This document shows, piece by piece, positions 26,942 through 27,550 of a stretch of DNA of 64,000 nt; position 1 is the first letter of the stretch; the number at the start of each line of letters is the position of its first letter. The notes beneath the pieces were generated by a model, which did not search any database, was not told the origin of the DNA, and saw nothing but the letters and a program-made list of their open reading frames with translations. The position numbers were made by a program, and so were the translations under genes. Source of the DNA: Acidimicrobiia bacterium UBA4744 (GTDB taxonomy: Bacteria; Actinomycetota; Acidimicrobiia; Spongiisociales; UBA4744); assembly GCA_002403855.1 (NCBI GenBank), contig DHIO01000050.1:16598-80597 (forward strand). Direction: 5' to 3'.

Positions 26942-27550
26942 ATGCTTGATGGTCGACCCGGATCAACGGGGCGCCTGGTTGCCGGGGCCGGCGTGGCAGC
27001 CGTGCTCGTAGGAGCACTCGTCGTTTCGTTGTTCGAAGGCGGTGGAGATGTTTCGACTGCTCTGCGCACAACAACAACAACAACAACAACAACAACAACA
27101 ACAACAACAACGGGACCAGCGCCGGCTGACATCTCAACCGCGTTCAAGGATGACGACACGTCGTACTTGAGCCGGACCTCGCGGCCGGTGCGGTCGGTTG
27201 GTGATATCAGGGTCGCCGGAGATGCTGTACTTGCCGCATGGGGGCGCTTCGCAGTGTCAGGGGATCTGTCTGAAGTAGATGCCTACTTTCACGGGAATAG
27301 TCCTCAACTGCCGCTTCTTGCGGCGAAGGCCACCCGACTTGGCGCTGACCCATTGGGCGAGCCAGCCTATGCCTTTGAAATGGCGAGCCCCCGCATCGAG
27401 GAGGATTCGCCGGGAATGGCGACCATGCAGGGTTTGGTCACCGCCTTTCGCGGCCATGCCCCGCCCTTGCAGTTCGAGTGGAGGTTGGTCCTCGCCAGGT
27501 CTGATGACCCTCCCGGCTGGCTCCTATGGACCCTGGAAGAGTTGGACTGA
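26942..27550 (+). CDS. membrane-anchored hypothetical protein with poly-Thr(15) linker, last gene of the Tad locus
   Basis: N-terminal TM (LVAGAGVAAVLVGALVVSLF), then T15 encoded by the (ACA)14+ACG repeat, then a ~140-aa globular domain of unknown family. Confidence 0.55.
   Translation: MLDGRPGSTGRLVAGAGVAAVLVGALVVSLFEGGGDVSTALRTTTTTTTTTTTTTTTGPAPADISTAFKDDDTSYLSRTSRPVRSVGDIRVAGDAVLAAWGRFAVSGDLSEVDAYFHGNSPQLPLLAAKATRLGADPLGEPAYAFEMASPRIEEDSPGMATMQGLVTAFRGHAPPLQFEWRLVLARSDDPPGWLLWTLEELD
27067..27111 (+). repeat. (ACA)14-15 trinucleotide microsatellite inside the 26942-27550 CDS
   Basis: Counted directly: 44 nt of uninterrupted ACA repeat plus G = 15 Thr codons. Confidence 0.9.

Follow-up and report, generated by a model that had tools for sequence, protein, structure and literature searches.

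An in-frame ACA microsatellite in the stalk of a membrane-anchored NTF2-like protein at the end of an Acidimicrobiia Tad/Flp locus: a probable lineage-specific slippage expansion

The window, that is, the whole 64-kb stretch of DNA analyzed here, contains a Tad/Flp pilus locus in which the genes for CpaB, TadZ, TadA, TadB, TadC, an Flp-like pilin, and three TadE-like proteins precede, on the same strand, a gene that we call gene X (Table 1). A Pfam Tad match was also found among the upstream genes, and a G/xxxxE-type motif is present in Flp and in the second TadE-like protein. The ATG of gene X lies 10 nt beyond the stop of the third TadE-like gene, on the same strand, and only 3 nt separate its stop codon from that of a DUF222-HNH gene that converges with it. 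Given this 10-nt gap and the convergent neighbor, gene X is the terminal gene of the operon, which agrees with the position at the end of a Tad locus that an earlier, sequence-only reading of this DNA had assigned to it.

Two neighboring open reading frames seem to be listed with a start that is too early. The TadA frame listed at 22032-23504 (plus strand; TTG start, 490 aa) overlaps TadZ by ~180 nt, and the length of the TadA homologs (430-432 aa) places the start near 22206, with a 4-nt overlap with the TadZ stop. Also, the DUF222-HNH endonuclease gene (27554-29083, minus strand), convergent with gene X and syntenic in three of the homologous loci (L001, L004, and L008), is listed with 509 aa and is probably over-extended at its 5' end because the homolog in L004 has 393 aa. 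No Rfam family and no tRNA gene was found in the window.

Table 1. Features of the Tad/Flp locus, of gene X, and of its ACA tract, in window coordinates
Feature	Position	Strand	Evidence
CpaB/RcpC	20195-20959	+	Pfam RcpC
TadZ, ParA-like	20962-22209	+	Pfam ParA/CbiA
TadA ATPase	about 22206-23504	+	Pfam T2SSE
TadB	23393-24409	+	Pfam T2SSF
TadC	24406-25374	+	Pfam T2SSF
Flp-like pilin, 70 aa, G/FQTAE motif	25423-25635	+	
Three TadE-like genes	25642-26049, 26046-26486, 26483-26932	+	
GAAGG, putative Shine-Dalgarno-like site, 6 nt 5' of the ATG, overlapping the stop of the preceding TadE-like gene	26931-26935	+	Sequence reading
Gene X, 202 aa, membrane-anchored NTF2-like protein, last gene of the Tad operon	26942-27550	+	Open reading frame; homologs with 27-56% identity
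N-terminal hydrophobic helix, aa 12-30 (LVAGAGVAAVLVGALVVSL), signal anchor	26975-27031	+	Best 19-residue Kyte-Doolittle window, mean 2.49
Disordered Ser/Thr/Pro/Gly/Asp-rich stalk, aa 31-85, with Thr15	27032-27196	+	AF2 pLDDT 45-62
Perfect trinucleotide microsatellite, (ACA)14.7, 44 nt	27068-27111	+	Tandem Repeats Finder: period 3, 100% match
15 Thr codons, (ACA)14 + ACG, Thr43-Thr57 of protein X	27068-27112	+	In frame with the ATG at 26942
Unique flanks of the ACA tract: ...GACTGCTCTGCGC (left side) / ACGGGACCAGCGCC... (right side)			
C-terminal NTF2-like domain, aa 86-202	27197-27547	+	Motifs AWGRF, GPQ, W180, W193, W196

The architecture of protein X is that of a bitopic membrane protein. 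Its plan would comprise a short tail in the cytoplasm, a single membrane helix, a stalk of ~55 residues, and a C-terminal NTF2-like globular domain. Arg5 and Arg11 are found on the N-terminal side of the helix and Glu/Asp residues after it, which by the positive-inside rule suggests an N-in/C-out topology. The membrane anchor (aa 12-30) followed by a disordered stalk (aa 31-85) bears out the earlier proposal of a membrane-anchored protein with an extracytoplasmic stalk, with the orientation being the one predicted from these charges. Ser, Thr, and Pro make up 47% of the stalk, whose sequence is not conserved among homologs.

The 117 residues of the C-terminal domain are predicted to fold with pLDDT >93 into an α+β cone with three helices on a curved antiparallel sheet, as in the NTF2-like superfamily, and the alignment of homologs delimits a conserved domain of ~115 aa that includes the AWGRF and GPQ motifs and three Trp residues. 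Matches to NTF2-clan Pfam models are all weak, being DUF4440 in four of 19 members (best E 0.0024) and SnoaL_4 in two of 19 (best E 0.021), and protein X itself gives no NTF2-clan Pfam match. Moreover, it could be assigned to no Pfam family and matches no NCBIfam model, whereas the Pfam hits "Mucin" and "New_glue" that fall on the Thr run were discarded as low-complexity noise. A profile search of the PDB returned nothing relevant, only spurious phycoerythrin matches with E >0.1. The prepilin motif G/xxxxE is absent from its N terminus, and for this reason a pseudopilin identity was rejected.

A profile search against 1.84 billion representatives recovered no more than 330 clusters (E <=1e-10 for 300), so the family of protein X is a small one with sharp limits. 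Tad genes lie upstream of the homologs in 13/13 GTDB loci from Acidimicrobiia/Actinomycetota metagenome-assembled genomes and in several metagenome/Logan contigs, the Tad-linked set being overall L001-L022, L025, and L056; in L001-L022, the synteny of the Tad genes is kept. In this way, the check put forward in the sequence-only reading, that is, whether homologs of the C-terminal domain stand at the end of other Tad loci, gave a positive answer for each of the 13 related GTDB genomes and also for several contigs from metagenomes. However, the domain is not limited to Tad loci. In the soil contigs L023-L043, proteins of ~450-500 aa have the helix and the NTF2-like domain in their N-terminal part and, in the C-terminal half, the metallophosphoesterase motifs GDNQY, GNHEY, and GHEH (for example, L039 6681-8174), with no Tad genes nearby. 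Also, in L048-L054, a stand-alone family member of 180-181 aa adjoins a gene for an AMP-binding enzyme. 

With respect to the known Tad accessory proteins (the TadE/TadF/TadG pseudopilins, RcpB, RcpC, and TadD), protein X resembles them in operon position, right after three TadE-like genes, but it lacks the prepilin-peptidase motif, the Tad (PF13400) domain, and any match to a Tad family model, and belongs to a different fold class. As a Tad component, it is placed by gene clustering and synteny and not by homology to a described Tad family. No paper that connects NTF2-like proteins with Tad pili came up in a literature search.

The stretch 27065-27115, read directly, is CGC (ACA)14 ACG GGA, and codon 43 of the open reading frame 26942-27550 begins at 27068. 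Both this reading and the 100% match of Tandem Repeats Finder corroborate the ACA microsatellite pointed out in the sequence-only reading. Its length of 44 nt was given correctly there, whereas the coordinates 27067-27110 were one base off, the actual ones being those of Table 1; the run of 15 threonines and its frame were also right (codons 43-57), and a change in copy number would indeed keep the frame because the unit is a triplet within the open reading frame. On the other hand, a GC content of ~70% had been claimed, and the measured value is 63% across the window and 58-63% around gene X.

The tract is unique in the window. Elsewhere in these 64 kb, the longest perfect triplet run is 11 nt, a length that the ACA tract alone exceeds. 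Moreover, an (ACA)5 probe of 15 nt, allowing at most one mismatch, has 11 matches in the window, all within the tract, and no match was obtained with this probe across 100 dinucleotide-preserving shuffles. The tract is then a coding microsatellite: a perfect repeat of a unit in the range of 1-6 nt, far beyond chance, inside an open reading frame and with a unit that is a multiple of three. Two minus-strand open reading frames that cross it, 26731-27159 (poly-Val) and 26811-27137 (poly-Leu), were taken as shadows, since it is the plus frame that is conserved across more than 40 loci, and the sole terminator-like match near the tract was rejected as an artifact of the (TGT)n "T-run" on the minus strand. 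As a separate observation, the window also holds an imperfect heptanucleotide repeat, (GGTTTCA) x 9.3 at 42532-42595 (Tandem Repeats Finder score 86), which begins 4 nt past the stop of the plus-strand open reading frame 41614-42528 (ABC-permease-like C terminus); it lies between convergent genes, and its period is not a multiple of three.

The codon composition of the tract points to its origin. ACA represents 9.7% of the Thr codons in 13 neighboring genes (30/308), and the 10 Thr codons of gene X outside the tract are ACC, ACG, or ACT. The use of ACA in 14 of 14 repeat units and in 0 of 10 Thr codons elsewhere in the gene argues for the amplification of a DNA unit and not for a codon-by-codon selection of Thr. 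At the aligned site, the closest relative (L021, ~50% identity) has CCG ACC TCC ACA ACG GGC, compared with CTG CGC (ACA)14 ACG GGA in the window. Also, the stalks of the four closest relatives have 46, 47, 46, and 47 aa, compared with 59 aa in protein X, an excess of ~12 residues that is close to the number of extra threonines. From the single ACA of L021 and the shorter stalks of the four relatives, it follows that the tract originated by the lineage-specific expansion of one codon.

A comparison of the whole family leads in the same direction. Among 211 family proteins, the run of 15 threonines is the longest; the next has eight and most have three or fewer, so it corresponds to a lineage-specific extreme. 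The run of eight, in the Tad-linked protein P0095 (L056), is encoded by (ACC)6 ACG ACG. Moreover, identity to the relatives is 42-50% for protein X and 66-81% for their Tad proteins, and this lower identity indicates that gene X, and most of all the stalk, is evolving rapidly. Within the stand-alone branch, P0014 and P0009 share 98% identity, with a single indel between them that corresponds to one Thr in a T5/T6 run (ACG ACC ACG ACC ACC versus ACG ACC ACC ACC ACC ACC). These alleles suggest, indirectly, that the length of Thr runs may change on short time scales in this family. Linkers with another kind of repeat were also observed: in the distant Tad-linked homologs of L009 and L010 (both ~7918-7975) and of L015 (~7936-7979), there are 18-nt in-frame tandem repeats in 2.4-3.2 copies, which encode 6-aa, TTVAPV-like units, and these linkers are about twice as long as that of the window.

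We consider it likely that the tract is a lineage-specific slippage expansion of one ACA codon in the tolerant, disordered stalk of a bitopic protein of the Tad operon. Replication slippage would have amplified a single ACA Thr codon in the last, probably co-transcribed gene of an Acidimicrobiia Tad/Flp pilus operon, leaving a stalk ~12 residues longer than those of the nearest relatives. Because the unit is a triplet and the constraint on the stalk sequence is weak, gains and losses of units would preserve the frame and be tolerated. By our own estimate, with ~0.35 nm per extended residue, the stalk would have been lengthened by up to ~4 nm. The architectural likeness of protein X to the bitopic NTF2-like scaffolds VirB8, TcpC, TraM, and DotI also suggests a possible role in pilus assembly. 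By analogy, slippage would be not only the generating process but also one that is still acting, and the tract is probably length-variable today. Close strains were sought by a protein search, a GTDB genome scan, and a metagenome scan, with nothing above 56% identity to protein X. The purity of the tract could reflect either a very recent origin or maintained purity, and the data do not separate the two. In terms of sequence evolution, a recent and possibly neutral expansion would fit the data at least as well as an adaptive one. The description that suits the tract best is that of a coding microsatellite of recent origin within a tolerant linker, a commonplace type of element.

The role of the threonines themselves can be read in another way. 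A poly-Thr segment could be favored as a dense substrate for O-mannosylation, giving a glycosylated, mucin-like stalk that would be stiffened and shielded from proteases, a reading that is compatible with an origin by slippage and that we regard as unlikely. Linkers rich in S/T/P and located outside the membrane are common to the entire family, three of its branches have short runs of T4-T8, and in Actinobacteria, GT-39 PMT enzymes have been documented to O-mannosylate secreted regions rich in Ser/Thr (PMC11727336, PMC12757957), which makes this modification of the Thr run plausible for an actinobacterium. Protein X is also like the S/T/P-rich, often O-glycosylated linkers of actinobacterial proteins in having an exported, disordered Thr/Ser/Pro segment that joins an anchor and a globular domain, although it differs from them in that 15 identical residues derive from a single-codon microsatellite. 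However, the relatives manage with mixed Ser, Thr, and Pro and no long run, and the single-codon make-up points to mutation pressure and not to selection for Thr.

A second possibility, which we consider quite unlikely, is that the tract works as an adaptive contingency locus, where hypermutability would generate subpopulations with different stalk lengths, tuning the reach of the NTF2 domain through the cell wall and, with it, Tad assembly or adhesion. The sequence-only reading had already proposed that a changed copy number could vary how far the protein reaches outside the cell. This reading finds support in a tract that is long, perfect, and in frame, and that is located in the extracytoplasmic stalk of an operon-linked protein. 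Moreover, the 46-47 aa of the stalk in four diverged relatives suggest that its length is perhaps not free, so a gain of 12 residues might have a functional effect, and the 98%-identical family alleles described above do differ in the length of a Thr run. Also, trinucleotide repeats are highly polymorphic in the actinobacterium Mycobacterium leprae, with 4-9 alleles per locus among isolates (PMC3135989). The ACA tract resembles these loci (TTC and others) in that more than 10 perfect triplet units occur in a genome that is high-GC or actinobacterial, and changes inside genes are frame-preserving; it differs in being located in an intact, conserved gene, where it encodes homopolymeric Thr in a surface stalk, in being known from one allele, and in coming from an uncultured bacterium that its nearest relatives indicate to be Acidimicrobiia-like. 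Nonetheless, none of the 211 homologs has a comparable tract, and thus it is not a conserved property of the family. In addition, in-frame changes of 0.3 nm per unit in the linker would be graded and not switch-like, on/off switching of gene X by frameshift being impossible with a triplet unit, and the Tad function of protein X is only putative.

A more ambitious proposal, and a distinctly improbable one, is that protein X is a previously undescribed accessory part of the monoderm Tad machine, a VirB8-like, membrane-anchored NTF2 scaffold carried by a stalk that would span the cell wall. In this environmental actinobacterium, a hypermutable (ACA)n tract would then fix the length of the stalk as a contingency-type "ruler". 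As in the VirB8-like scaffolds of type IV secretion systems, protein X is bitopic and has a putative extracytoplasmic NTF2-like domain, with the topology being the predicted one. However, it has no detectable sequence homology to VirB8/TraE, TcpC, TraM (pIP501), or DotI/IcmL and no Pfam VirB8 or TcpC match, and its operon corresponds to a Tad/Flp (type IVc) pilus and not to a type IV secretion cluster. Moreover, generic NTF2-like enzymes and the CaMKII hub score equal to or above these scaffolds against the fold of protein X, which means that the fold alone does not assign a function.

It is very improbable that the tract acts at the level of translation, with 14 rare ACA codons (43-56) slowing the ribosome as the signal-anchor helix emerges from the exit tunnel and so aiding SRP targeting and membrane insertion. 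ACA is indeed a minor Thr codon (9.7%), and the tract starts 13 codons past the end of the helix, which places it about one exit-tunnel length beyond the helix start, but no homolog has an equivalent cluster of rare codons, and L056 uses the preferred ACC. A hotspot for MazF-type cleavage at ACA is a further conceivable reading of the tract.

Finally, an independent assembly bears on whether the tract is real. The Logan contig L055 (SRR5325130_29, 21 kb) is identical to the window at 3613 of 3614 positions over 23483-27096; it includes the left junction and 29 nt of the repeat, and then ends. As a second, independent assembly of this organism, L055 verifies the left junction and the presence of a long tract, and its end within the tract is explained because the k=31 de Bruijn graph is no longer unique there. 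The exact product of gene X has no record in the protein collection, whereas those of the three genes upstream are recorded from NCBI and Logan, and the break of L055 inside the tract accounts for the absence of the protein from the Logan source. Therefore, the suspicion that this is an assembly error or a non-coding, decaying open reading frame whose Thr15 is never made, prompted by that missing record and by the break of short-k assemblies in the tract, is largely refuted by the independent assembly, which contains the left junction together with 29 nt or more of the repeat, by the intact frame on both sides with 117 downstream residues at pLDDT >93, by the conservation of that downstream domain in 330 protein clusters, and by a start codon, a Shine-Dalgarno-like site, and an N terminus that align with those of the homologs.

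Assemblies with k=31 break at a triplet repeat of 44 nt, so gene X is systematically absent from catalogs built in this way. If the tract is polymorphic, it could serve as a strain marker for an uncultured Acidimicrobiia lineage and would offer a natural experiment on the stalk length of a cell-envelope protein. Moreover, the ~330 clusters found here define a family of membrane-anchored NTF2-like proteins without an existing model. The envelope-spanning parts of Gram-positive Tad pili are poorly known, and the Tad-linked branch of this family, consistently encoded last in actinobacterial Tad operons, is a candidate accessory factor of these pili. The recognition of this unannotated, Tad-linked, membrane-anchored NTF2-like family in Acidimicrobiia is the most useful by-product of the analysis and may outweigh the repeat itself.
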